From Candidatus Micrarchaeota archaeon (GTDB lineage Archaea > Micrarchaeota > Micrarchaeia > Anstonellales > Anstonellaceae): a stretch of DNA of 64,000 nt. The stretch is taken from contig JAOAKI010000014.1 of assembly GCA_026413765.1 (NCBI GenBank), positions 38,896 to 102,895 of the forward strand, in the 5' to 3' direction. The translations under genes and the position numbers were made by a program. Each line of letters begins with the position of its first letter. Positions within the stretch are counted from its first letter, which is position 1. The notes beneath the pieces were generated by a model, which made no database searches, had not been told where the DNA came from, and was given only the letters and a program-made list of their open reading frames with translations. Of this stretch, positions 13,221 to 64,000 are shown in pieces.

Positions 13221-16200
13221 ATGAAGAGGCTTTTCATCCTTTTGCTATTTTTTTCATGCCTCTCAGCAGAGCGTTTCAGCGATTGCATCAATCCTTCTGC
13301 TCTTGAGCGCTTTTGGCTTTCTCCTTCTTATGTCTCCTCAAACCCATACATCTACAACTTTGGTTTTTCGCGCATCTACTCGTTGTCGTTTGAAAAAACA
13401 TTGCCGAGCCTGGGCGCAGACAACGCCTCAATTCTAAGCTGGGATGAGCTTCGCTCAGCTTATGGGCTGAAAGAAAACCAAGAGCTCCTCCCAATCAAAA
13501 AGGGCCTTCAAGGCGCCTCAGAAGCGCTGGCTGCAGCCAAAGAGGCCTCTTATTCTGCCCAATCTTCCATGCTGAAAGTCAAAGAGCTTGCCAAAGAATT
13601 TGAATATTCCGCAGAGAACGTTGCGCTTTTTGCGGCAGGGGTATTTTTTCTTCCGACCTCCCCTCTTATTTTCGAGATGGTGGTGCTTTACAAGTTTTGG
13701 AAAACAGGCGAAGCGTACTATTATGCGACCACCTTCCCAAACAATTATGCGGAAGCTCTTTCGAACTTCGCAGATGCTTATGAGCAGCTGAACTCTGCTT
13801 CAATCCAAGCGGCTTTTTTGGCGCAGAAAGCTTATGATGAGCTGGAGCTTGCAGGCGCAGGCAGCCCCGCCTACAGCGGCGTCGCAAAAGAGCCATTTTT
13901 CTATGCACAATCGAAGGCATCGGTTTTCTCCCCTTTCTGCTTTAAGCAGAGGCAGCTTTCAGACAGCATCGCTGAATATTTTGCAAGCAAGCCTCAGCTG
14001 CCCGACTTTTCGAACCTCAGCTTCGGAAGATACCTCGAGCTTGCGGGCGGAAAAGAGAACTCCTCGATTATTGTCTTTATCGGGCTTTACCAAAACCTCT
14101 CCGAAGCATACAAAGAAATGGAAAACGAATATCTGCAAGCAGAATTCCAAGCAAAAAACAAGCTGGCTAGTCTTTCGTTGAAGATTGAGGAGTTGCGCAG
14201 ACAAGATATCCATCTTATACCTGATGCCCAGCCAGCCCAGCTGCGCGAAGTCTCGGTTGGCAAGGAATTTTCTGGGATTGCAAGCGGCCTTGTTCAGGCA
14301 GAAAGCGAATATGAAAAGGCAAGCAGGCTTCTCCAAGCCTCAAAAGAAGCAAAATCCTCAAAAATGAAAGACTATCTTGCATCCGCAATAAGCCTTGCCA
14401 AAGAATCAGCAGAGACTTCAGAAAATGCTTTATCCTCCCTTTCCTCTGTGCACGCCTCCGCCATTCTTGCAGTTGAAAACACGCAAACCCTTGCCGACCG
14501 GACAATCAAGAGAGCGCAGGAAACCCTGCAGCCTCCTGCCTCGCTTGCGGCTTCGCACAATACTATCTTGGCAAACAGCCTTTTAAATGACGCAAAAGCA
14601 GCCTATAGCCAAGCTTCGCTTGAGCCAACCTTAGGCAAGAAATACAAAGCCTACTTTACCGCCTATCGCCTTGCCGATTCCGCCCTCGTGCTTTCTTCGG
14701 ATGCAGGCTCTGCAGATTCCAAAAGCCGCCTTCTTGAGCAGCTCAATTCTTTTGCAAGCTTTCTGGACGCGCTGGAAAAGGACGGCTTTGATGTCGAATA
14801 CGAAAGGCAGCAAGCCAAAGAGCTGCAAAGCTTGCTTTCTTCCTCCTCTTCATACACAGGCGAGCTTTTCCAAAAAATCAGCAAGCTTTTGGCAGACAGG
14901 AAAGAATTTTTGCTGCAGCAGCTTTCTTCCAAAGCCGCCCGGCTGGAGGCTGATTTTTGCGCCTTGAAAGAGGATGTGTCTATTCTGCGGAGGCAATCCA
15001 TGCTTCTTCTGCCTGAATTCGACCAGCTTTCTGCATATTTTGCCGGATGCAAGCTGGATTTGGAGAGGGCGGCAGGCAAGCTCAAAAGCATCCAAGAGTC
15101 ATTGTCAAAGGCAAGGCTTGACGCGCAAAGGAAAATACCAGAATTCCTTTCTTTCGAGCTTTCAAAAAATGCAAAAGCATTTGAGTTGCTGCCAAGCCCA
15201 ATTTTGGGAAAAAAGCAAAGGGCGCAAATTACGATTTCCACCGTAAATCCCTCCCCTTTTGCCTCAAATTCCCCAATTTCATTCCATGCAAAAACGACAA
15301 TTCCTGTCTATTCCTCTGAAATCGTCTCTGGAAATGTGATGGATGCATTTGGGGCAGAGTCAGGCTCGACAATCACTTTGCCCTCGGTTTCGGCATACCA
15401 AAACATAATTCTCAAATTCGAAAAAGATTACGAGCCGGCGCAGCGAATCTCCTCTTCTGAAAAATGCAAGGTGGCATCGCCCGAAGGAGCATGGGTGGAA
15501 AGGGCAATTTCGGTGTTCTCCAAGTCGGACCTAGAAACTCTTTATCTAGATGAAAAAGTCGACGGGCAAGTTGAGGACGCATATGCGCATATTTCAGGAA
15601 GAGCTTACCGGCTCTACCAATCTGATGGCAGCCTGAAAGGCCCAATCTACTTTTTGCCAGCAGGCCAGCACACGATTTCAGTCAGGTTCCTTCTTTCAAA
15701 GCCATTCTCACTTGCGCAAAAAGAGCGCGTGCATTCTACCGAAAGCGGCAAGCACAAAATATCCTATATCGTGGAGGTGCAAAACATTTCTGTGGCTTGC
15801 GAAGAGTTCTCAATAACTCTTTCAGAGCCTTTCCCTGCCACTAATTTTTCAGTTGAGGGATTTGATTTCTACAAACCCTCTAAAATCTCGTTTTTGTCCT
15901 ATGCTGGCAGGACATCAGCCGCCTTTTCATTCCAACTGCAAAGCTCTGCCCCAAAATTCCTGGTCTCTTTCGAGATTGCTGACGTTCAGGCTGCGCTTTC
16001 AGATGCGCTCATGCAGGCGGAATTGCAAGTGCTTTACCACAACCGCTCAAAAGATGCCGAGCTTCTCTCAACCGCAAAACTTCTGCTGCAGCAAAACAAA
16101 ACAAAGGAAGCGCTTGCGCTGCTTTCGCAAATAGGCTCTCGCCCAAGCTTGCCTGAGCCGAAAGAAGAACAGTTTGAAAAAGAAAACACGCAAGCAATCG

Positions 16201-17252
16201 AAGCAATTTCTCTTGCAAAAGAGGCCCTCTCCTCTATCCAAGCTTATGATTCTCCATATTTTGCTCAGCTTTCCAGCCTGCTTTTTGATCTGCAAGAAGG
16301 GCAAAACCAGTCGTTGAAATTGCTTGAGGAAGGGAAATCCGACGCAGCCACCGCCATGCTAAGAAAGCGCATAGAGAAATACCGGCTGTCGCTTTCCTCT
16401 CTTTCTTTTAAGGCGGCCTCAGAGGCGGCAGACTCCTTGTCAGAAGCCAAGACAGCAGCCACCCAAAGCCTGCTTTTTTCTGAGATTGAAGAAGACATAA
16501 AGAAGGCGCACCTGCTTTATTCCCAAGGCAATCACCTCTCCTCGCTTCAGCTTTCCTTGAGCGCGATTGCGAAGCTCAAGAAGCTAAAAGAGCTCAGCCA
16601 GCAGCAAGAGCAAGAGCAAATCAGCCAAGCAGAAGAAATAAAAGCCAAATTTGCAGCCGAAAAACAGAAAGTCGAAACGCTCATCGCAAACTATTCCCAG
16701 CAATATTTTGCCCTCACCTCGCAAAGCAGACGCAAGCTGCTTTATACGCCTTCTGCTGCTTCGGAGGAGCTGGAAGCTGCCTCCAAAAAGCTTGCCGCCG
16801 CCTTCAAGCTAAAAGATGGCAAAAAAATCCTTTCAGAAGCAAACGCCTCCCTTACGCTTCTTCTTGAGCTTGAAAGTAAGCTCCAATCCATGCTCAGCCA
16901 AATAAAATCAAACGCCGATTCCTCTTTAGAGGTGGCAAGAATAGCCTTTCTTGAGGCAAACAAAACAGCTCAAAAAGAAGAGGCAGAGATGCTTCTAAAG
17001 GAGCTTTCAAAGTCCGAGGAGCTCTTTGCAAACGCCTTGTATGCGGATTCACTTGCGCTCTCTGAGAAAGTCATCAAAGCGGCAAACGCGATTGTCTCAA
17101 GGAATGCGCAACCAACCGACTTCAGGCTTGTCGGCCTTGGCATTGCCTCTCTTTTGTTCATTGCACTTGCAGTCTGGGCGTTTTCCTCTGGAATGAAGCA
17201 GCCGAAGCCAAAGAAACAAATACCGAAAGCAAGCCAAGAAAAGCAGCCCTAG
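13221..17252 (+). CDS. 1343-aa secreted A/S/L/E/K-rich coiled-coil surface protein with a C-terminal TM anchor
   Basis: Signal peptide MKRLFILLLFFSCLSA, long alpha-helical low-complexity regions, a central beta-rich segment (~aa 690-900), and C-terminal LVGLGIASLLFIALAVWAF plus a basic tail. Confidence 0.7.
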   Translation: MKRLFILLLFFSCLSAERFSDCINPSALERFWLSPSYVSSNPYIYNFGFSRIYSLSFEKTLPSLGADNASILSWDELRSAYGLKENQELLPIKKGLQGASEALAAAKEASYSAQSSMLKVKELAKEFEYSAENVALFAAGVFFLPTSPLIFEMVVLYKFWKTGEAYYYATTFPNNYAEALSNFADAYEQLNSASIQAAFLAQKAYDELELAGAGSPAYSGVAKEPFFYAQSKASVFSPFCFKQRQLSDSIAEYFASKPQLPDFSNLSFGRYLELAGGKENSSIIVFIGLYQNLSEAYKEMENEYLQAEFQAKNKLASLSLKIEELRRQDIHLIPDAQPAQLREVSVGKEFSGIASGLVQAESEYEKASRLLQASKEAKSSKMKDYLASAISLAKESAETSENALSSLSSVHASAILAVENTQTLADRTIKRAQETLQPPASLAASHNTILANSLLNDAKAAYSQASLEPTLGKKYKAYFTAYRLADSALVLSSDAGSADSKSRLLEQLNSFASFLDALEKDGFDVEYERQQAKELQSLLSSSSSYTGELFQKISKLLADRKEFLLQQLSSKAARLEADFCALKEDVSILRRQSMLLLPEFDQLSAYFAGCKLDLERAAGKLKSIQESLSKARLDAQRKIPEFLSFELSKNAKAFELLPSPILGKKQRAQITISTVNPSPFASNSPISFHAKTTIPVYSSEIVSGNVMDAFGAESGSTITLPSVSAYQNIILKFEKDYEPAQRISSSEKCKVASPEGAWVERAISVFSKSDLETLYLDEKVDGQVEDAYAHISGRAYRLYQSDGSLKGPIYFLPAGQHTISVRFLLSKPFSLAQKERVHSTESGKHKISYIVEVQNISVACEEFSITLSEPFPATNFSVEGFDFYKPSKISFLSYAGRTSAAFSFQLQSSAPKFLVSFEIADVQAALSDALMQAELQVLYHNRSKDAELLSTAKLLLQQNKTKEALALLSQIGSRPSLPEPKEEQFEKENTQAIEAISLAKEALSSIQAYDSPYFAQLSSLLFDLQEGQNQSLKLLEEGKSDAATAMLRKRIEKYRLSLSSLSFKAASEAADSLSEAKTAATQSLLFSEIEEDIKKAHLLYSQGNHLSSLQLSLSAIAKLKKLKELSQQQEQEQISQAEEIKAKFAAEKQKVETLIANYSQQYFALTSQSRRKLLYTPSAASEELEAASKKLAAAFKLKDGKKILSEANASLTLLLELESKLQSMLSQIKSNADSSLEVARIAFLEANKTAQKEEAEMLLKELSKSEELFANALYADSLALSEKVIKAANAIVSRNAQPTDFRLVGLGIASLLFIALAVWAFSSGMKQPKPKKQIPKASQEKQP

Positions 17253-37422: not shown

Positions 37423-37469
37423 CCTTTATAGTTTAAAAATTGTTTTTATAAAAGGAAATCGGTGGAATA

Positions 37470-37799
37470 ATGCGTACCTTGAGATTAGTGTTTCTCATAT
37501 TCCTTGCACTCTCATCCATCTTATTTGCATCTCAGCAACCAACCCAAAAGCTCAAGGACGCCTTGCAGCAGCTGTGTGTTGGCGTGAGGGACCTGATTCC
37601 AGTGGCGGCAATGACGATGGTTCTTCTTGCCGCAGTTATCTATGCGACAGGGCAGATGATGGGGGCAGAAACCCGAGCAAGGGCAAACGTTTGGGCAACT
37701 TCTTGCCTTACAGGGGCGCTCATAGGAATATTGATAGCAGTGATTGCCCCTTCAATCCTAACTAACCTTGCCCCCCCAGGAACGCAAGTCAACTGCTAA
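37470..37799 (+). CDS. small secreted two-helix membrane protein resembling VirB2/TrbC conjugative pilin (CedA1/TedC-like?)
   Basis: Signal peptide, then two hydrophobic helices separated by a short charged loop (..AAMTMVLLAAVIYATGQMMGAETRARANVWATSCLTGALIGILIAVIAP..), 109 aa. Confidence 0.35.
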   Translation: MRTLRLVFLIFLALSSILFASQQPTQKLKDALQQLCVGVRDLIPVAAMTMVLLAAVIYATGQMMGAETRARANVWATSCLTGALIGILIAVIAPSILTNLAPPGTQVNC

Positions 37800-37851
37800 A
37801 AAATCAGCGCTGCCTCTTGTTTTTAAAGCTTCATAGCCAACTTCCACAACT

Positions 37852-39588
37852 ATGGAGCCCGCGCTTGCGGTAGGCATCAGTGTCAGCGTTATCATGCTTT
37901 TTGCTCTGCTTTTTGAGAAATTGCGCCTTCCTCTCATCCTAGGGATTCTTCTTGCGGGGATGCTGATAGGGCCGCACTCTCCTCTTGCCGAGCTAAAATG
38001 GGGCGATTTCAGCTTCAGCAACCTCATTATTTTTGACATCTCCACTGTTGGAGTCTTTGCTGTCATAGGCTCGGCCCTGATCCTTTTTGGTATAGGCCTG
38101 GAGTTTTCAGTAATACGCTTGGCGCAGGCAGGGCCATTCATTTTGCTTGCCACCGCCATAAAGGTAGGATTCACCTATCTTATTGCAAATTTTGTTTTGC
38201 TTTTGCTGGGCTTTCCCGCCCAGACAGCAAGCCTGGTTTCAGTTGCGCTTTCGTTTTCTTCCACGCCAATCATTATCAAATTGCTTGAGTCTTCAGGCAA
38301 AATAAGGAGGCCCGAAGTGCCCTTCATAATCTCCATCTTGGTCATCGAGGACCTCATTGCGGTCTTCTTGCTTGGTTTGCTTGCATGGCCTTCGCTTGAA
38401 GGCGAATACAACATATTTTTCTCTTTGGTCAAAGTTCTGGTCACATTCGTCTTTGCCTACGTCGTCCTTTCCAGATTCATCTCCAAATTCCTTTCTTTAA
38501 TCTCGCATTCAGACGAGCTTTTGATCTTGGGCACGGTAAGCTGGGTGCTAATGATAGGCTATATTTCAGATGTCATCGGGCTGTCGTTTTCAGTCGGTGC
38601 TTTCCTTGCAGGCAGCACAATTGCAGGCTCATTTGAATCTAGGAAAATAGAGGACAAAATAAGGCCGTTCAATTTCCTTTTTGCGTCGTTTTTCTTTTTC
38701 TCAATAGGGCTTATGATAGATCTGTATTCAGTGATTTCCAACCCCTTTTTGCTTTCGGTCTTTCTTTTCTTAGCAGTGGCTGTACGGTTTTTTGCAGCAG
38801 GCATCTCTTCCTATCTTGCAGGCTTTGCAGGAAGGAACTCAAGCTTTTGCTCCACCGCTTTGCTGCCCGTCTCTGAGCTTTCTTTGCTTCTTTTGAGTCA
38901 CGGGATTGCAAGCAACATCGTCCCACACTACATGCTTGGAAGTTTTGCCTTCGCAATATTGGTCTCCTCTTTCGTGTCGACCTGGACGATCGGCAGGGAA
39001 AACGAAATCTACAATTTGCTACTGAACATAAGCCCCCAGCTTCTCATCAAGAACATGCGCCTTGTCAGGATGACTATCTTGGGCATGCGCAAGGCAGTCG
39101 TCGAGTCATCGAAATATTATCGAGTTGTTGAAAAATTGCCTTCTATTACCCAAGGCACAACTGGCGTTTCTACACGGGAGCAGCTTGCAATAACCTCAAA
39201 AAACAGCGTCCTTTTTGCCCTCTGCTCTCTTCTGTTTTTTCTGGGCATCTTTTTGGTCCAAAGCCCCCAATTCAGCTTCCTTTCTTCATTTTTCATCTTT
39301 GTTTTTGTCTTGTTTTTCTTTTGTTCAGCCCTTTTCCTCGTCAACCTCAGCTCATCATTTTCTTCTCTTGCGAAAATGGTCTCCCGCTCGGCAAATGGAG
39401 CCAGATACTGCATCCTTGTGCACTCAGCGGCAGCAGCAACCTTTCTCTTCCTTTTTGCAGCCTATTGTATAGGCTATTTTTTTGTGCCCTCTTCGCTTGC
39501 GATTCTGCTTTCTATCCCTTCAATAGCGTTTGCGCTAAAAGAAGCCATCCTTGCATTCAAGCTGATTTCTTTTGGCGCAAGGCTCTAG
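37852..39588 (+). CDS. CPA2-family monovalent cation:proton antiporter (Kef/NhaP-like), membrane domain only
   Basis: ~12 TM helices with Na_H-exchanger-like organisation; a C-terminal extra membrane region, no TrkA domain. Confidence 0.6.
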   Translation: MEPALAVGISVSVIMLFALLFEKLRLPLILGILLAGMLIGPHSPLAELKWGDFSFSNLIIFDISTVGVFAVIGSALILFGIGLEFSVIRLAQAGPFILLATAIKVGFTYLIANFVLLLLGFPAQTASLVSVALSFSSTPIIIKLLESSGKIRRPEVPFIISILVIEDLIAVFLLGLLAWPSLEGEYNIFFSLVKVLVTFVFAYVVLSRFISKFLSLISHSDELLILGTVSWVLMIGYISDVIGLSFSVGAFLAGSTIAGSFESRKIEDKIRPFNFLFASFFFFSIGLMIDLYSVISNPFLLSVFLFLAVAVRFFAAGISSYLAGFAGRNSSFCSTALLPVSELSLLLLSHGIASNIVPHYMLGSFAFAILVSSFVSTWTIGRENEIYNLLLNISPQLLIKNMRLVRMTILGMRKAVVESSKYYRVVEKLPSITQGTTGVSTREQLAITSKNSVLFALCSLLFFLGIFLVQSPQFSFLSSFFIFVFVLFFFCSALFLVNLSSSFSSLAKMVSRSANGARYCILVHSAAAATFLFLFAAYCIGYFFVPSSLAILLSIPSIAFALKEAILAFKLISFGARL

Positions 39589-45767: not shown

Positions 45768-46292
45768 TTGCTAGCCTCCATCTTCCTTTTCGCCTTGCTT
45801 GCTGCATCCGCGCTTGCGCTTGAAGCAAAAAAGCCAGATAAGGCATTTCAGAAGTACCATCTTTTGCGGGTTCAGGAGCTTGCAGTCAGGACCGCAATCA
45901 TGGAATCGGTTTCAGCATCTGCGCAAAAGGCGCTTTATGCCGCAATCGCACTGGACCAAGAGCCGTATTTCTACATTAAAGGGGCAGTGCATGAAAAGCT
46001 TGTACAGCTGGAGGAAGAATTTCGAAAAGAAGGCTTTGACGTGGTCATCTGGTGCGGCTTCCCCTCCGCCAAGCAGCTTGCAGATGCATCAAAAGAAATG
46101 CAAAAGGCGGGAAAAGCGCTTAGCCCAGCAAGCACTGTTCAGGTTTCCGCAGGAAGCTGCCTTCACAGCATCCATGTGGGTCTTGCTGAAAGGAAGGTGC
46201 AGCTTTCATCGTTCGGGTTTTCGCTTTATTCAGAACCGCTTGGCGCAGGAGTTGCGTTCAAAATGCCTCCAAATGCTGAGGTTGATTTTTGA
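45768..46292 (+). CDS. secreted protein, first gene of the pilin-like operon (TTG start proposed)
   Basis: TTG at 45768 gives (M)LASIFLFALLAASALA|LEAKK, a canonical signal peptide; the stop overlaps the next ATG (TGATG). Confidence 0.4.
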   Translation: MLASIFLFALLAASALALEAKKPDKAFQKYHLLRVQELAVRTAIMESVSASAQKALYAAIALDQEPYFYIKGAVHEKLVQLEEEFRKEGFDVVIWCGFPSAKQLADASKEMQKAGKALSPASTVQVSAGSCLHSIHVGLAERKVQLSSFGFSLYSEPLGAGVAFKMPPNAEVDF

Positions 46293-46633
46293 TGTGCAAA
46301 AAATATTTTGGCCAAGCCTCATTTGAGGCGCTTCTTTCTTTTGCCTTGCTGCTTTCTTGCATCACACTGCTGTTTTTTCATGCAAACGGCATTTGCGGCA
46401 AATTCGTTTACCAAATAGAGGCAAGCGCAGAAAAGATCCGTCTCTCAAACGCAGCATTGCTTCTCGACAGCGCAGCTTCAAGCAAAGTCTTTGCCCAATT
46501 TCAGGAAAATCTGACAAACATATCCGTTCAAGGCGATTCGGTCTTCTCGCCGAAATACCCGCAAATCAGGCAAAAGCTTCTTCATAACGCATCAGTGGGT
46601 CAGGATGGGACAATCTATGTGCAAGCCCAATAG
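46292..46633 (+). CDS. type IV pilin-like protein with class III signal peptide
   Basis: N-terminus MCKKYFG|QASFEALLSFALLLSCITLLF (basic, G, Q, acidic at +5, then a hydrophobic helix). Confidence 0.55.
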   Translation: MCKKYFGQASFEALLSFALLLSCITLLFFHANGICGKFVYQIEASAEKIRLSNAALLLDSAASSKVFAQFQENLTNISVQGDSVFSPKYPQIRQKLLHNASVGQDGTIYVQAQ

Positions 46634-47003
46634 CTCGAAGGCCTTTTATTCGTTCGATGCAGCCTTTGCATTATTATTTGCCCTCATGATTTACCTTGCT
46701 TTCTCTTCGATAATTTTTTTGGTTTCGGAAGGATTCTCATCCTATGCGGATTCTTATTCAATGTCTGCTGCCTCTGCCCGCATATCTTTCCTCATTTTAG
46801 ACAAAATGAAAAAAGGGGAGTTTGATTTCGGCTGTGAAAAGATAAGGAAGCAGGTTGGGCTTTCTTATCTGAGGGCAGAGGCGCATGTGGGCGACCAAGA
46901 ATTCATTTCAGAGGCAGGAAGCAAAGGGAAACAGCTTTTCTGCACTTCCAGGCTTTTCATTTTTTCAGGCAAGGTCTCCAAGCTGGTGGTGTGCGTGTCA
47001 TGA
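46617..47003 (+). CDS. type IV pilin-like protein with class III signal peptide
   Basis: N-terminus ..NSSKAF|YSFDAAFALLFALMIYLAF. Confidence 0.5.
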   Translation: MCKPNSSKAFYSFDAAFALLFALMIYLAFSSIIFLVSEGFSSYADSYSMSAASARISFLILDKMKKGEFDFGCEKIRKQVGLSYLRAEAHVGDQEFISEAGSKGKQLFCTSRLFIFSGKVSKLVVCVS

Positions 47004-47338
47004 AAGCATTTGCGATGTCTTTCGAAGCAGGCCTGTCGTTCTTGCTTTTGCTGTCTGCCCTGGCAATTGTGCAATTTTTTGCGCCAGCAAAGTTCAGCCA
47101 GTCAGATTTCTTTCTTTGCTTGGATGTCGCGCAGATTTTGGTCGAATCCTCCGCATTCTCAGAAGAGCGCATGCTTGAGTCAATGCTACAAGAGGCGTCC
47201 TTTCTCTCGGGTCTTTGCATTCAGGCAAGCCACTTTTCCACTTGCTCTTATGAAAGGCAGGAAAAGCTTTCCATACATTTTCCAGTGTGGGCAAACGGCT
47301 CGATAGCAAGCCAGAGCGTTTCGTGCTGGAGGCACTAG
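47000..47338 (+). CDS. type IV pilin-like protein with class III signal peptide
   Basis: N-terminus MKAF|AMSFEAGLSFLLLLSALAIV; ATGA overlap with the upstream gene. Confidence 0.5.
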   Translation: MKAFAMSFEAGLSFLLLLSALAIVQFFAPAKFSQSDFFLCLDVAQILVESSAFSEERMLESMLQEASFLSGLCIQASHFSTCSYERQEKLSIHFPVWANGSIASQSVSCWRH

Positions 47339-47377: not shown

Positions 47378-48415
47378 GTGGTAAGGCTTGCCTTTGTGTT
47401 TTTGCTTGCAATGTCGGTTCTCGTCCAGTCGCACAACCTTTCAATCAAAGTGCTGCTTCTCCCAGACACCATTGCGGTAGGCACAAACGTTACTGTCCTG
47501 CACGACGGTGTTGAGCTCTTTACAAAAAAGGCAGACAAAAACGGAATTGCTTCATTCGAAGTGCCATCTGGAAGCTATTTTGTCATCTTGAAGAGAGGCG
47601 GCTATCCAACACACGTGAACCTTTTGAACGTCGAAAAGGACACAGAAATTACTCTGTTTTTGCGCAATCAAATTTCTTACGGCGGCATCTACGGGCAAAT
47701 CAGAGGCCCCCAGAATTTCTCAAACGTTTCAATATCGGTCTATTCGGGCCAAAAGCTGGTAAAGAAATTCAGCAGCAAGGCAGACAACACCCCAAACAAG
47801 GACGGCTATTTTTTCATCCAATATCTCCCAGAAGGCGAATATAGGTTTGTTTTTGATGCACCTGGCTTTGTCTCAAAGGAAGAGGAGCAGCAAATATTCG
47901 AAGGCCAATTTAATGAGCTGAATGTTTTCCTTGAAAAGGAGAAGCCAGCAGAAGAGCCAAAAGCAAACGCCACCGCGCCTGCAAAGCCAACCTTGGTTGT
48001 GAGCTCGGACATGCAGAAATACTCGAAAGTGACTGTCACTCTTTCAGTAGGCAATGCCCCACTGCCAGGAAAGCAAATCATTGTGAAGACCCCTGCAGGC
48101 AACCTTGAGCTGACAACATCGGACAAAGGGCAAGCATTCTTCAATGCAGCAGAAGCAGGAACATATGTTGTCTCTTATGAAGACATCAACTATACTTTTT
48201 TCATCCAAGAGGATGAAAAGCCAAGCATAGCTCAGCCTCCAGCTGTGCAAGAGCAGGCAAGCAGCCAGCCCAAAGCCGAAGCTGCTGAGGAAAGCCAAGC
48301 AAGCATTGCAATTTTTGGCTTGGCGGCAGGCATGATTTTTATCTTCATGGCAATAACAGTTGTCGTGCTGTGGCAGGTGCTCAAAAAAGGCAAGCACAAG
48401 CGCCACAAAAGGTGA
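47378..48415 (+). CDS. surface protein with carboxypeptidase-regulatory-like beta-sandwich domains and a C-terminal TM anchor
   Basis: Signal peptide, repeated ..[33 protein letters not shown].. modules, C-terminal [23 protein letters not shown] plus a [10 protein letters not shown] tail. Confidence 0.55.
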
Positions 48416-49949: not shown

Positions 49950-50068
49950 TGCAGGGAGGGAGATTTGAACTCCCGATGACCTAAAGTCACCAGATTGCTT
50001 ATTGCCCTTTTGCAAAAGCAAATGGGATCTTGAGTCTGGCGCGTTAAACCTGGCTCCGCCATCCCTGC
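49950..50068 (-). tRNA. tRNA-Leu(CAA) containing a 33-nt intron at the canonical 37/38 position
   Basis: Minus-strand read: acceptor GCAGGGA/TCCCTGC, 3-bp D stem (class II), anticodon stem CCAGA/TCTGG with loop CUCAAGA interrupted after G37, extra arm TGAC..GTCA, T arm GGGAG-TTCAAAT-CTCCC, discriminator A. Confidence 0.8.
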
Positions 50069-61412: not shown

Positions 61413-61794
61413 CTTTTTCAAAATGGCATTGCAGTCAGCAGACTCATTTGCAGCCGCCAGATTGGCAAGCCGCACTTTGTTTGGAAGACAGCTTGCCACA
61501 AAAGAAAATCTTTTTAAATCATTCTTTCCTAATAAAAAGCCGCAACCATCAGGGCAAAGCCCTGACATTAGCAGCAGAGGTGTTTTGGCTGCGATGCATA
61601 CAACAATTTGAGTGTTAAGCACCTCCACCGCTTATTTTTGCGGTGAGAGGGAGGCTCACCGCGTTTGGGCCGCTATTTTTGCAGTGATGATGCCGCGTTC
61701 CCCTTTTTGGGGAAGCGTTAGCCTTCGCGGGCAACTTACATGCAGAAATGCATGTATTTCATGAGTATGAAGAAAGCAACTGAAGTTCACCGAT

Positions 61795-64000
61795 ATGCAT
61801 GTTACGCCAATCAGTGGATGGCTAGGCTTCGGTAGTATCACGGCCCCGTAGCAAGCTGCGAAAAGCTCCGGGTAGGAGCAGGCATCCTTTGATCCGGAGA
61901 TCGGGCGGAGTGCCGCAAGGCACAGAATACCCCGGGAATTAAAACATTCTAGTACCGGGAGGAAAAGAAACCAACAGGGATTCGGTGAGTAAGGGTGACT
62001 GAAAGCCGAAGAGCGCAAACCGAATGTAGCATGGCAACATGCTGCAGATGTGGGCGGCGCATCCGTTTCCAGATTCGAGGTCGGCTGGAAAGCCGCGCCA
62101 TAGAGGGTGACAGCCCCGTAGATCAATGGAAGCGGAGCAAAGCAATCAAGAGTAGTGCTCATTGGGTATTGGGCATGAAGATGGCGGGACTAACCGCCAA
62201 CGCTAAATATAACCGAAGACCGATAGCGAATTAGTAACGCGAGTGAACGCTGAAAAGGAGTCCGAAAGGACAGTCAAAAGAACCTGAAACTGATTGGTGA
62301 AAGGTTGATGCAGCGTGGAAGGGCACGACTGCCAAAGCAACCAGTCGAGAGGCTGGAAGCAAGGCAGGCATACCAGCGTTGCATCGTTCTTCTCGAAGCA
62401 AGAGCCAGGGAGTTGATGTGGTGTGGCGAGGCGAAAGCCGAAGCGAAAGCGAGTGGGCGCATCGAAAGAAAGGCCCGTCGTCCGAAAGGGCGATCAGTCA
62501 CACTCATCAGACCCGAAGCCGATGTGAACTAAGCGAGCGCAGGTCGAAGCCAGCCTGACGGTTGGTGGAGGACCGCAACCGGTGCTAGTATATTCTGCTC
62601 GGGTGACGCGCGCTTAGGGGTGATAGTCCAATCGAACTCGGCAATAGCGGGTTCCCCTCGAAATGTCCCTCAGGACAGCCTCGATGGAGGTTGGATGCGG
62701 GGTAGAGCACTGATCGTAAGGACTGGCTCCGAAAGGGGTCACCTTGCTGTCAAACTCCGAATCTGCATCCACCGTAGAAGTCGGGAGTCGGGTTCTGCTG
62801 GGTAAGCTAGCAGGCCATCACGGGAACGACCGGTGCCGCAGTTAAGGTCCCTAAATTCAGGCTAAGTGCTAATCCAAAAGGAGTGTCCGGTCTAAAACAG
62901 CTGGAAGGTAGGCTTAGAAGCAGCCATCCTTTAAACAACGCGTAATAGCGGACCAGTCTAGATCGCACATTCCGAAGATGATCGGGGCTAAGCCTGGTAC
63001 CGAAACTGCGGAGTTGCCCCAAAAGGGCAACTGGTAGGGGGGCGAGCTGGTTGGGCAGAAGCAGGGCCGTGAGGTCCTGTGGACTGGCCAGTTATGAATA
63101 TCCTGGTATTAGTAACAGCATATCCAGGCGAGAATCCTGGACGCCGCATAGCACACGGGTTTCTGGGCAATGTTCTTCAGCTCAGAGTTAGGCGGTCCTA
63201 AGACAGCAGCTAATTGCGAGCTGTCGAAAGGGAAAACGGTTAAAATTCCGTTCCTGCACAGGTAGACGCGGCAACGCAAGTTGTGCTTCTGACGCTTTGG
63301 GGTAGGGGTGGAGGAGGAGACTTCTCTTAAAGCTCATAATGCCTTCGAGTCTCATTGTGAGGAGAAGAGGCATAAAGAGCCCAAAACATCCTGATCCCTG
63401 GAGCCCATGAAAAGGGAGCATGACCGATCCTGTGCACCCGTACCTAGAACTATTACAGGTGCTGCTGGCAGAACAAGCCAAGGCGTGTCAGGAGAATTCA
63501 GCTAAGGGAACTCGGCAAATTAGTGGCTTAACTTCGGGAGAAGCCATGCCTGCCTTTCCGCAAGGATGGGCAGGTCGCAGTGACAAGGGGAGGTCGACTG
63601 TTTACCAAAAACACAACTCGCAGCCAATCGGAAACGATTAGTACTGCGGGTGACGCCTGCTCACTACTGGTACGTGAAAGCCTGTTCCAACGGGCTTAAG
63701 CGCCAGCAAAGAGCGGGGGTAACTCTGACCCTCTTAAGGTAGCGTAATACCTCGCCGCTTAATTGGTGGCTTGCATGAAGGGCGTAACGAGCCTCCCGCT
63801 GTCCCTAGCTGGAACCTGGTGAACTTACTACTCTGTGAGTATGCAGAGGACTTCTAGGGGGAAACGAAGACCCCGTGGAGCTTTACTATAGCCTGATCTT
63901 GTGATACGAGCGTTGCTGCGGAGCGTAAATGGGAGCCGCTATGTTGCGCCTCTCGGGGTGCAAATAGGCGCCGTTGTAACACCATTCAGCAGCGCTTGTA
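61795..64000 (+). rRNA. rrl: 23S (large subunit) rRNA, 5' ~2.2 kb; continues beyond the window; 5' end approximate (+/-50 nt)
   Basis: Domain I ..CAGTGGATGGCTAGGCTTCGG..GATCCGGAGAT..GGGAGGAAAAGAAACCAACAGGGATTC..; domain V ..CTTAAGGTAGCGTAATACC..GGCGTAACGAG.. and GAAGACCCCGTGGAGCTTTACTATAGCCTGA near 63870 (E. coli ~2060), which places the 5' end near 61800. Confidence 0.85.

Follow-up and report, generated by a model that had tools for sequence, protein, structure and literature searches.

A conserved two-helix membrane protein family of Micrarchaeota with weak but specific resemblance to VirB2/TrbC-type pilins

The hairpin gene and its product

The DNA analysed here, referred to as the window, is a 64-kb stretch from a Candidatus Micrarchaeota archaeon (Micrarchaeota, DPANN), and the subject of this study is a small gene within it at 37470..37799 (+), which begins with ATG and encodes 109 amino acids followed by a stop codon. 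The original prediction, made from the DNA alone, gave exactly these coordinates for the open reading frame (ORF) and quoted a peptide that is present in the translation; it also assumed an archaeal context, which is borne out by an archaeal large subunit (LSU) rRNA gene at 61790-64000 and a probably intron-containing tRNA gene at 49950-50068. The identical database entry is a hypothetical protein of Candidatus Micrarchaeota archaeon with the locus tag N3G80_04245. Since 786 homologues were found at E ≤ 0.01 and the core VIYATGQMMGAETRARANVWATS is invariant in 45 of them, the reading frame is not a chance ORF; the homologues listed are 56-80% identical, and those bearing an organism name are from Micrarchaeota. 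The gene is the best-conserved, fixed-position member of a multigene family specific to the Micrarchaeota, and its product resembles, in profile comparisons, the pilins of bacterial conjugation and of archaeal DNA import weakly but specifically. The features of the locus are listed below.

37430..37447 (+): putative archaeal promoter, a conserved AGTTTAAAAA(t/c)TGTTTTT element read from the sequence
37432-37439 (+): TATA-like box TTTAAAAA, ~31-38 nt 5' of the ATG of the hairpin gene
37461..37465 (+): Shine-Dalgarno-like ribosome-binding site GGTGG, 5-9 nt ahead of the ATG
37470..37799 (+): complete ORF of the VirB2-like hairpin protein precursor, the conserved-slot orthologue of the Micrarchaeota 'GAETRARA' family
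37470..37529 (+): residues 1-20, Sec-type signal peptide with n-region MRTLR, a hydrophobic core and the ending ...ILFA
37530..37598 (+): residues 21-43, exposed, extracellular and amphipathic N-terminal part of helix 1 with the invariant Cys36, conservation 0.61
37599..37649 (+): residues 44-60, transmembrane part of helix 1 PVAAMTMVLLAAVIYAT, conservation 0.90
37650..37688 (+): residues 61-73, hairpin loop and flanks GQMMGAETRARAN, invariant, conservation 1.00 in 45 homologues
37689..37760 (+): residues 74-97, transmembrane helix 2 VWATSCLTGALIGILIAVIAPSIL, conservation 0.89
37761..37796 (+): residues 98-109, variable exposed C-terminal tail with the invariant terminal Cys109, conservation 0.49
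37820..37827 (+): separate TATA-like box TTTTTAAA of the following Na+/H+ exchanger gene, read from the sequence

The promoter motif AGTTTAAAAA(t/c)TGTTTTT recurs at equal distance in the orthologous loci L006, L007, L008, L016, L021, L022 and L025, and GGTG stands at the equivalent site in most orthologous loci with ATG starts. A box TTTTTAAATTT is likewise kept ~25-30 nt before the exchanger ATG in orthologous loci. The hairpin gene is treated here as monocistronic because separate conserved TATA-like boxes precede it and the exchanger gene, and the putative box at 37820..37827 is taken as the end mark of the pilin-like transcription unit. A scan for bacterial promoters and terminators found nothing, a result without relevance for an archaeon.

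AlphaFold2 models of the protein were built from a 45-sequence alignment. The full-length model has a predicted local distance difference test (pLDDT) score of 88, a signal-peptide helix at residues 2-18 and hairpin helices at 24-62 and 66-100, while the model of the mature protein (pLDDT 90) consists of helices 3-42 and 46-80 with a three-residue turn between them. This topology agrees with that of the original prediction, in which a signal peptide is followed by two hydrophobic helices and a short loop. The signal-peptide segment is the least conserved part of the protein (0.42), the variable hydrophobic stretch being closed in the alignment by a conserved F-A, after which cleavage by signal peptidase I is predicted. 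Across the 45 homologues the core VIYATGQMMGAETRARANVWATS, Cys36 and the C-terminal Cys109 are invariant, and a disulfide may form. In 134 cluster representatives of the whole family, E67 and R69 are still invariant, and conservation reaches at least 90% in the adjacent residues, in the loop signature Y-x2-GQ-x2-GAETRARA-x-VWAT and in both cysteines.

Conservation within the close family falls from the loop (1.00) through the transmembrane helices (~0.9) to the exposed N- and C-terminal segments (0.61 and 0.49). This pattern fits a VirB2-type pilus, in which the lumen is lined by the loop and the outer surface carries the termini. By the positive-inside rule and the analogy with VirB2, the loop GQMMGAETRARAN is predicted to lie on the cytoplasmic side while the protein is in the membrane and to become lumenal if the protein is polymerised.

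Pilin likeness and the gene family

With the window protein as query, the Pfam model TrbC (PF04956) matches at E=5e-5, covering positions 16-96 of the 98 in the profile, T4SS_pilin (PF18895) at E=0.01, and the NCBIfam model TrwL (NF033899), the top match in that database, at E=3e-4. At E ≤ 0.01, 31 of the 45 close homologues match TrbC (best 5e-7) and 36 match T4SS_pilin (best 4e-6), and some of them bear a precomputed PF04956 or PF18895 annotation. A search of the PDB with the family profile likewise gave as top match TrwL (8s6h), the VirB2 pilin of plasmid R388, at a marginal E=0.058; the alignment is in register from the mature N-terminus through helix 1, of which the transmembrane stretch (residues 44-60) is the part aligned with TrwL helix 1. 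As a control for hydrophobic composition, ten family sequences were reversed, and none of them matched the pilin models even at E ≤ 1, their best match to any model lying at about E=0.01 (~0.009). The similarity to the pilin profiles thus appears to exceed the level expected from composition and hydrophobicity alone, and we consider it probable, not proven, that the protein is homologous to the VirB2 superfamily.

In the same PDB search, the family profile matched at E ≤ 10 only TrwL and three unrelated chains and gave no match to CedA1 or TedC, whose presence among the chain sequences was assumed. The missing match is weak evidence because Ced and Ted components themselves have no recognisable similarity to each other. 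Fold searches are unable to classify a bare two-helix hairpin. The protein lacks the features of an archaeal type IV pilin: there, a class III signal peptide consists of a short leader with the prepilin-peptidase motif (K/R)G/A, a single hydrophobic helix comes directly after it, and the C-terminal domain is globular, whereas the window protein has a classical Sec-type signal and two further hydrophobic helices.

The similarity searches also bear on the explanation that this is a small membrane protein of other function, for example an unrecognised subunit of a complex, whose likeness to pilins stems only from the shared design of a signal peptide and two helices. We regard this as improbable, as both of the independent pilin models in Pfam, the TrwL model of NCBIfam and TrwL in the PDB come out at or near the top, in register from the mature N-terminus, and as the reversed controls never match the pilin models. 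It also leaves aside the genomic link of a sister subfamily to a VirB4-class ATPase, described in the next section.

In an exhaustive profile search of 1.84 billion proteins, the family comprised 407 clusters at 50% identity (E ≤ 1e-3). Among species-representative genomes, all 154 relatives came from Micrarchaeota or from unnamed archaeal metagenome-assembled genomes. The family is chromosomal. The mature protein had no tblastn match in 72,556 plasmids, and the family was absent from the viral contigs searched. In 38 sampled assemblies the median number of copies was 3, with up to 8; six family genes lie on the near-complete contig of Ca. Anstonella LFW-35 and five in the closest relative of the window organism. 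The gene had been described as lone, which is correct insofar as it is the only family copy in the 64-kb window, but related genomes carry several dispersed copies, and it is no single orphan gene but a conserved-slot member of this multi-copy family.

The other family slots have several recurrent settings. The genes form tandem arrays of 2-6, followed by PAC2 and superoxide dismutase genes; these conserved neighbours, PAC2 and Fe/Mn superoxide dismutase, are ruled out as machinery by their identity. In other slots the family genes adjoin type-IV-pilin-like genes and a divergent ATPase of the GspE/FlaI/VirB11 class, or genes that look like glycosyltransferases, as judged from sequence alone. 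In yet others they lie directly downstream of giant surface proteins without a Pfam match, the example in L069 being without an NCBIfam match as well. The tandem arrays and the multiple copies per assembly mirror the VirB2-like arrays of Patescibacteria and were therefore counted in favour of a pilin.

The longer members carry the hairpin module with extracellular Cys-rich tails, contain it in duplicate, or have it at the C-terminus after a signal peptide and an immunoglobulin-like (Ig-like) region. The tails contain 14-16% Cys, begin at the point of the C-terminal tail of the window protein (residues 98-109) and give fusion proteins of up to 1,276 amino acids. Pfam found no domains on the long fusion proteins except one Gly-rich domain. 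In P0133 (247 amino acids) the hairpin is followed by a Hint/intein-like domain at the C-terminus (PT-HINT, E=1e-12), which suggests autoproteolytic processing at an exposed C-terminus; the long members P0157, P0161, P0176, P0137 and P0256 have extensions without a known domain.

These architectures speak for a different role, in which the hairpin is a non-polymerising membrane-anchor module for extracellular disulfide-rich surface domains, the 109-residue form is a scaffold or anchor partner for S-layer or giant surface proteins, and the resemblance to pilins reflects shared ancestry or convergence instead of pilus formation. Many members are fused to Cys-rich tails and one to a Hint domain, the module is also duplicated or placed behind an Ig-like region, and the two invariant cysteines lie on the extracellular side. 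Directly upstream of arrays are genes for giant proteins that have a signal peptide and, at the C-terminus, a transmembrane segment (c102 in L061, c115 in L055 and L069), and a c102 homologue occurs in the window at 13221-17252. An anchor leaves unexplained the absolute invariance of the cytoplasmic loop and the clustering of related modules with a VirB4-class ATPase, and in the most conserved member there is hardly any extracellular part that would need holding. We consider this main rival rather unlikely, although anchor and filament roles are compatible and not mutually exclusive.

The window homologue of c102, at 13221-17252 (+), is a 1,343-amino-acid protein with hydrophobic segments near residue 133 and C-terminally at ~1,299 and with no match in Pfam or NCBIfam. 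In L061 its homologue (1,398 amino acids) is followed immediately by four tandem family genes. The window protein at 13221-17252 may belong to the giant surface or S-layer type and be functionally tied to the hairpin family.

Assembly machinery, proposed mechanism and genomic surroundings

The original prediction saw neither a VirB4/CedB nor a VirB6/CedA gene within 10 kb of the hairpin gene. This holds, and for the ATPase the absence extends over the 64-kb window: Pfam scans of 20 window ORFs found no such ATPase, a Walker-A screen flagged three ORFs, all of Pfam housekeeping families, and six-frame tblastn with the proteins of the Micrarchaeales cluster described below, including its VirB4-class ATPase, gave nothing. 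A VirB6-like gene was not found in the window either, where part of the polytopic ORFs was scanned and the evidence is thinner. In ~1.13 Mb of Micrarchaeota DNA around 77 family loci, all scanned Walker-A ORFs of at least 380 amino acids were housekeeping or T2SSE-type ATPases.

One protein of these loci, c39 (813-938 amino acids, with Walker A), was considered as a hidden VirB4 and rejected, as it is a divergent ATPase of the GspE/FlaI/CpaF/VirB11 class in a type-IV-pilin-like locus. A conserved, very divergent ATPase of this superfamily with 790-938 amino acids is found at L034:15051-17489, L064:14864-17398, L050:14803-17616 and L061:14470-16839; it has a Cys-rich N-terminus and no Pfam match, and it matches PDB 2oap (E=7e-6) and the NCBIfam TadA and VirB11 models. 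In five loci, in three different arrangements, it lies less than 10 kb from family genes.

A genomic link to an ATPase of the VirB4 class was found in a sister subfamily from the sister order Micrarchaeales. P0262, a robustly related multi-module protein (E=2.5e-20 in the search of 1.84 billion proteins), heads a co-directional cluster, which was extended on a 488-kb contig and there runs from hairpin-module proteins through four polytopic membrane proteins and five unknown proteins to an ATPase of 503 amino acids. The Pfam matches of the latter are DUF87 (5e-17), AAA_10 (8e-14) and P-loop_TraG (3e-10). Among the NCBIfam models, CedD (3e-19), CedB (1e-16) and VirB4-like conjugal ATPases score best and outrank the HerA repair helicases, all of them below the equivalog cut-offs, and its PDB matches include HerA and the VirB4 C-terminal domain. 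It has 963 homologues, the top 120 of which are 70-87% identical; the named ones among these 120 are mostly assigned to Micrarchaeales, Micrarchaeaceae or Micrarchaeia, the cultured Ca. Mancarchaeum acidiphilum Mia14 being one of the organisms represented, and some homologues are labelled 'VirB4 component' by the Joint Genome Institute. The cluster is collinear in Mia14 and five further Micrarchaeales loci. All positions of the cluster are given here:

L089:9283-21899 and L091:382-21045: Micrarchaeales cluster (VFSW01000001.1 / DAIDBN010000002.1)
L092: Micrarchaeales cluster in Mia14, CP019964.1 686799-708316; also present in L093-L097

The cluster consists of ~16-20 co-directional genes, the sole Pfam-annotated one being the CedD/CedB/VirB4/HerA-class ATPase of 503-505 amino acids; in L096 the cluster-head gene itself is flagged as TrbC by Pfam. 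The polytopic proteins have 6-9 transmembrane segments, the unknown proteins 277-520 amino acids, and the genes past the ATPase encode, in this order, small proteins, a coiled-coil protein of ZapB type and one protein of ~795 amino acids. Directly after the Micrarchaeales hairpin gene lies a gene for a protein of 243 amino acids and six transmembrane segments, with the CedD/CedB-like ATPase downstream; this protein has no detectable relation to the hairpin module or to solved structures. The cluster looks like an undescribed apparatus similar to a type IV secretion system (T4SS) or to Ced. The arCOG table of the Mia14 paper lists VirB4 as absent and HerA in three copies, which fits the Ced literature, because CedB and CedD are VirB4-like ATPases of the HerA clade. 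The ATPase linkage of the sister subfamily is evidence independent of sequence similarity.

The small protein c136 (L048:9027-9314, L079:10499-10834) is the sole homologue of a cluster gene detected in loci of the window type, with 25% identity and E=1e-9. Its counterpart in the cluster is a gene for 118/133 amino acids, two genes past the ATPase, with a weak HNH_5 match, and in L048 c136 lies directly upstream of two family genes.

The explanation that we favour, although its prospects are finely balanced, is that the window protein is stored in the membrane as the subunit of a T4SS/Ced-like filament or conduit at the cell surface, the machinery genes of which lie away from it. The precursor would be exported by the Sec pathway and trimmed by signal peptidase I, leaving a hairpin of ~88 residues in the cytoplasmic membrane with both ends outward and the GAETRARA loop in the cytoplasm. 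By analogy with VirB2, CedA1 and TedC, subunits would be drawn from this membrane pool and assembled, probably along with membrane lipid, into a filament of tubular form or a short conduit, with the conserved loop lining the lumen and the variable termini outside, and paralogues with Cys-rich tails would display these on the exterior. The assembly machine would be a CedB/CedD/VirB4-class ATPase with polytopic membrane partners at another site in the window genome. Such distal machinery has a precedent in the Ted system, whose components can lie at loci far apart (PMC9905601). A likely use would be contact with host or neighbour cells and the import or exchange of DNA or other material.

Several results weigh against this explanation. 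All profile scores of the window protein lie below the curated cut-offs, with 23.9 bits versus a gathering cut-off of 27.9 for TrbC, 16.4 versus 26.6 for T4SS_pilin and 21.2 versus 100 for the NCBIfam TrwL model. The VirB2/TrbC-like assignment of the original prediction is partly supported, namely by the architecture and by a weak, specific profile similarity. In the broad set of 134 representatives, only 15 match TrbC and 12 T4SS_pilin at E ≤ 1e-3, and the unrelated membrane families Cyt_bd_oxida_II and Yip1 reach ~1e-5 in the same set. Alignment with hhalign to six genuine MPF_T pilins (VirB2/TrwL/TrbC from annotated plasmids) gave a weak P=0.002. A VirB4-class ATPase lies within 10 kb of none of the 77 family loci, an absence that counts in favour of the membrane anchor, and none was found in the window. 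The polytopic proteins of the Micrarchaeales cluster give no Pfam, NCBIfam, PDB or hhalign signal as VirB6, VirB3 or CedA, and none of the assembly accessions compared is shared between the 'GAETRARA' subfamily and the Micrarchaeales ATPase cluster. In addition, C-terminal extensions of up to ~1,150 residues are hard to fit into the lattice of a major pilin. The dispersed DNA-uptake or conjugation-like system that was originally suggested is the explanation now favoured, with the clustering of Micrarchaeales hairpin genes and a VirB4-class ATPase on its side, but co-occurrence in the same assembly was not found. More tentatively still, and with more doubt than confidence, one may picture a chromosomal T4SS/Ced-like apparatus of the Micrarchaeota with a VirB2-like family expanded by tandem variants and by fusions to Cys-rich, adhesin-like tails, in which the window gene encodes the invariant core subunit of tubes or contacts that supply DNA, lipids or other material from host cells and in which the pilin genes of the window lineage are fully uncoupled from the machinery genes.

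The surroundings of the hairpin gene are of the housekeeping type. Upstream and divergent lies the gene of an NFACT-R protein, and 52 bp downstream on the same strand that of a Na+/H+ exchanger of 578 amino acids (37852-39588, +); metallo-beta-lactamase-fold proteins, Ogg, the SUF system and PheRS are also encoded in the neighbourhood. This neighbourhood is kept in other Micrarchaeota genomes (20 analysed loci), and a region of ~30 kb is syntenic at 55-75% identity. The hairpin gene lies 35-63 bp upstream of the exchanger gene and co-directional with it in 16 of 19 measured orthologous loci, the other three gaps being 102-224 bp, which could point to an accessory or regulatory subunit of this exchanger. 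We consider such a role very improbable and reject the antiporter-subunit idea on account of the separate promoters and of the paralogues in other contexts: each gene has its own conserved TATA-like box, ~55 other family loci are without a nearby exchanger, and the adjacency says little because the whole ~30 kb region is syntenic. Exchangers of the cation:proton antiporter type are not known to require such a subunit.

In the exchanger itself, the Pfam domain spans residues 14-380 and is followed by a C-terminal extension of ~200 residues with four more predicted transmembrane segments; the length is conserved in the relatives examined (578-580 amino acids). Further along the window, at 45900-47338 (+), four small ORFs carry archaeal class III (type-IV-pilin-like) signals, for example FGQ|ASFEALLSF and KAF|AMSFEAGLSF, and are followed at 47378-48415 by a surface protein that combines a signal peptide with a CarboxypepD_reg domain and, at the C-terminus, a transmembrane segment. 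No assembly ATPase was found near these ORFs in the window, and similar pilin-like genes directly adjoin family genes in L034, L050 and L064. The tRNA gene at 49950-50068 (-), 119 nt long, was found by Rfam and missed by ARAGORN and probably contains an intron. The LSU rRNA gene (+) has no small subunit (SSU) rRNA gene upstream of it within the window, and the rRNA operon therefore appears to be unlinked.

Significance and comparison with known systems

How DPANN archaea connect physically to their hosts and take up material is an open question on which the hairpin family bears. Targeted literature searches gave no report of VirB2-like or VirB4-like components in Micrarchaeota, and published Micrarchaeota genome analyses name type IV pili, Sec and Tat and leave a T4SS-like system unmentioned. 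This divergent, expanded and machinery-uncoupled VirB2-like family of a DPANN phylum is undescribed so far. The findings point to two things, namely a phylum-specific, highly conserved and multi-copy family of VirB2-like hairpin proteins, and a Micrarchaeales cluster, present also in the cultured Mia14, that pairs hairpin proteins with a CedB/CedD/VirB4-class ATPase. If the family forms filaments or conduits, conjugation-type pili would reach a third archaeal group, in parallel to the ultra-small Patescibacteria with their essential chromosomal T4SS and their arrays of pilin genes, and existing co-cultures would have concrete candidates. If it does not polymerise, it would still be a new and abundant membrane-anchor module for Cys-rich surface proteins.

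The window protein shares with VirB2, TrbC and TrwL the cleavable signal peptide, a mature form of ~70-90 amino acids with two hydrophobic helices and a short basic loop, the helix 1 motifs (I/L)VP(I/V)AA ... YA-G, and genes that may be multicopy or arrayed. It differs in that the genuine examples all adjoin virB3, whereas the window gene has neither virB3 nor virB4 adjacent to it and lies in archaeal housekeeping surroundings on a chromosome instead of a mobile element. Its invariant GAETRARA-x-VW loop, the conserved Cys pair and the long Cys-rich C-terminal extensions of its paralogues are likewise its own.

Among archaeal systems, CedA1 of Ced (Sulfolobales/Desulfurococcales) and TedC of Ted (Thermoproteales) are also chromosomally encoded and have a VirB2-like fold, and the candidate Micrarchaeota partner ATPase belongs to a class that scores best against the CedD and CedB models. 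Beltran et al. (PMC9905601) report that signal peptidase I processes TedC and that Ted components may be encoded far from tedC, and they propose an origin of pilins from bona fide membrane proteins. In contrast to these Thermoproteota systems, the window lineage belongs to the DPANN and has several copies per genome, with fusions, and no CedA/TedA-like or CedB/TedB-like gene lies near the window gene.

The third comparison is with the Patescibacteria, also known as the candidate phyla radiation (CPR), in which chromosomal VirB2-like pilin genes form arrays of 2-11 and the chromosomal T4SS is essential, with pilin genes near virB4 in 1,135 of 1,948 assemblies (PMC12102498). Both groups are ultra-small with symbiotic relatives, and both have chromosomal, divergent tandem arrays (2-6 genes here) without a relaxase context; T4SS_pilin is the Pfam model matched by most close homologues of the window protein. 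The Micrarchaeota differ by their archaeal domain, by the absence of virB4 near all 77 loci and by a different loop signature.

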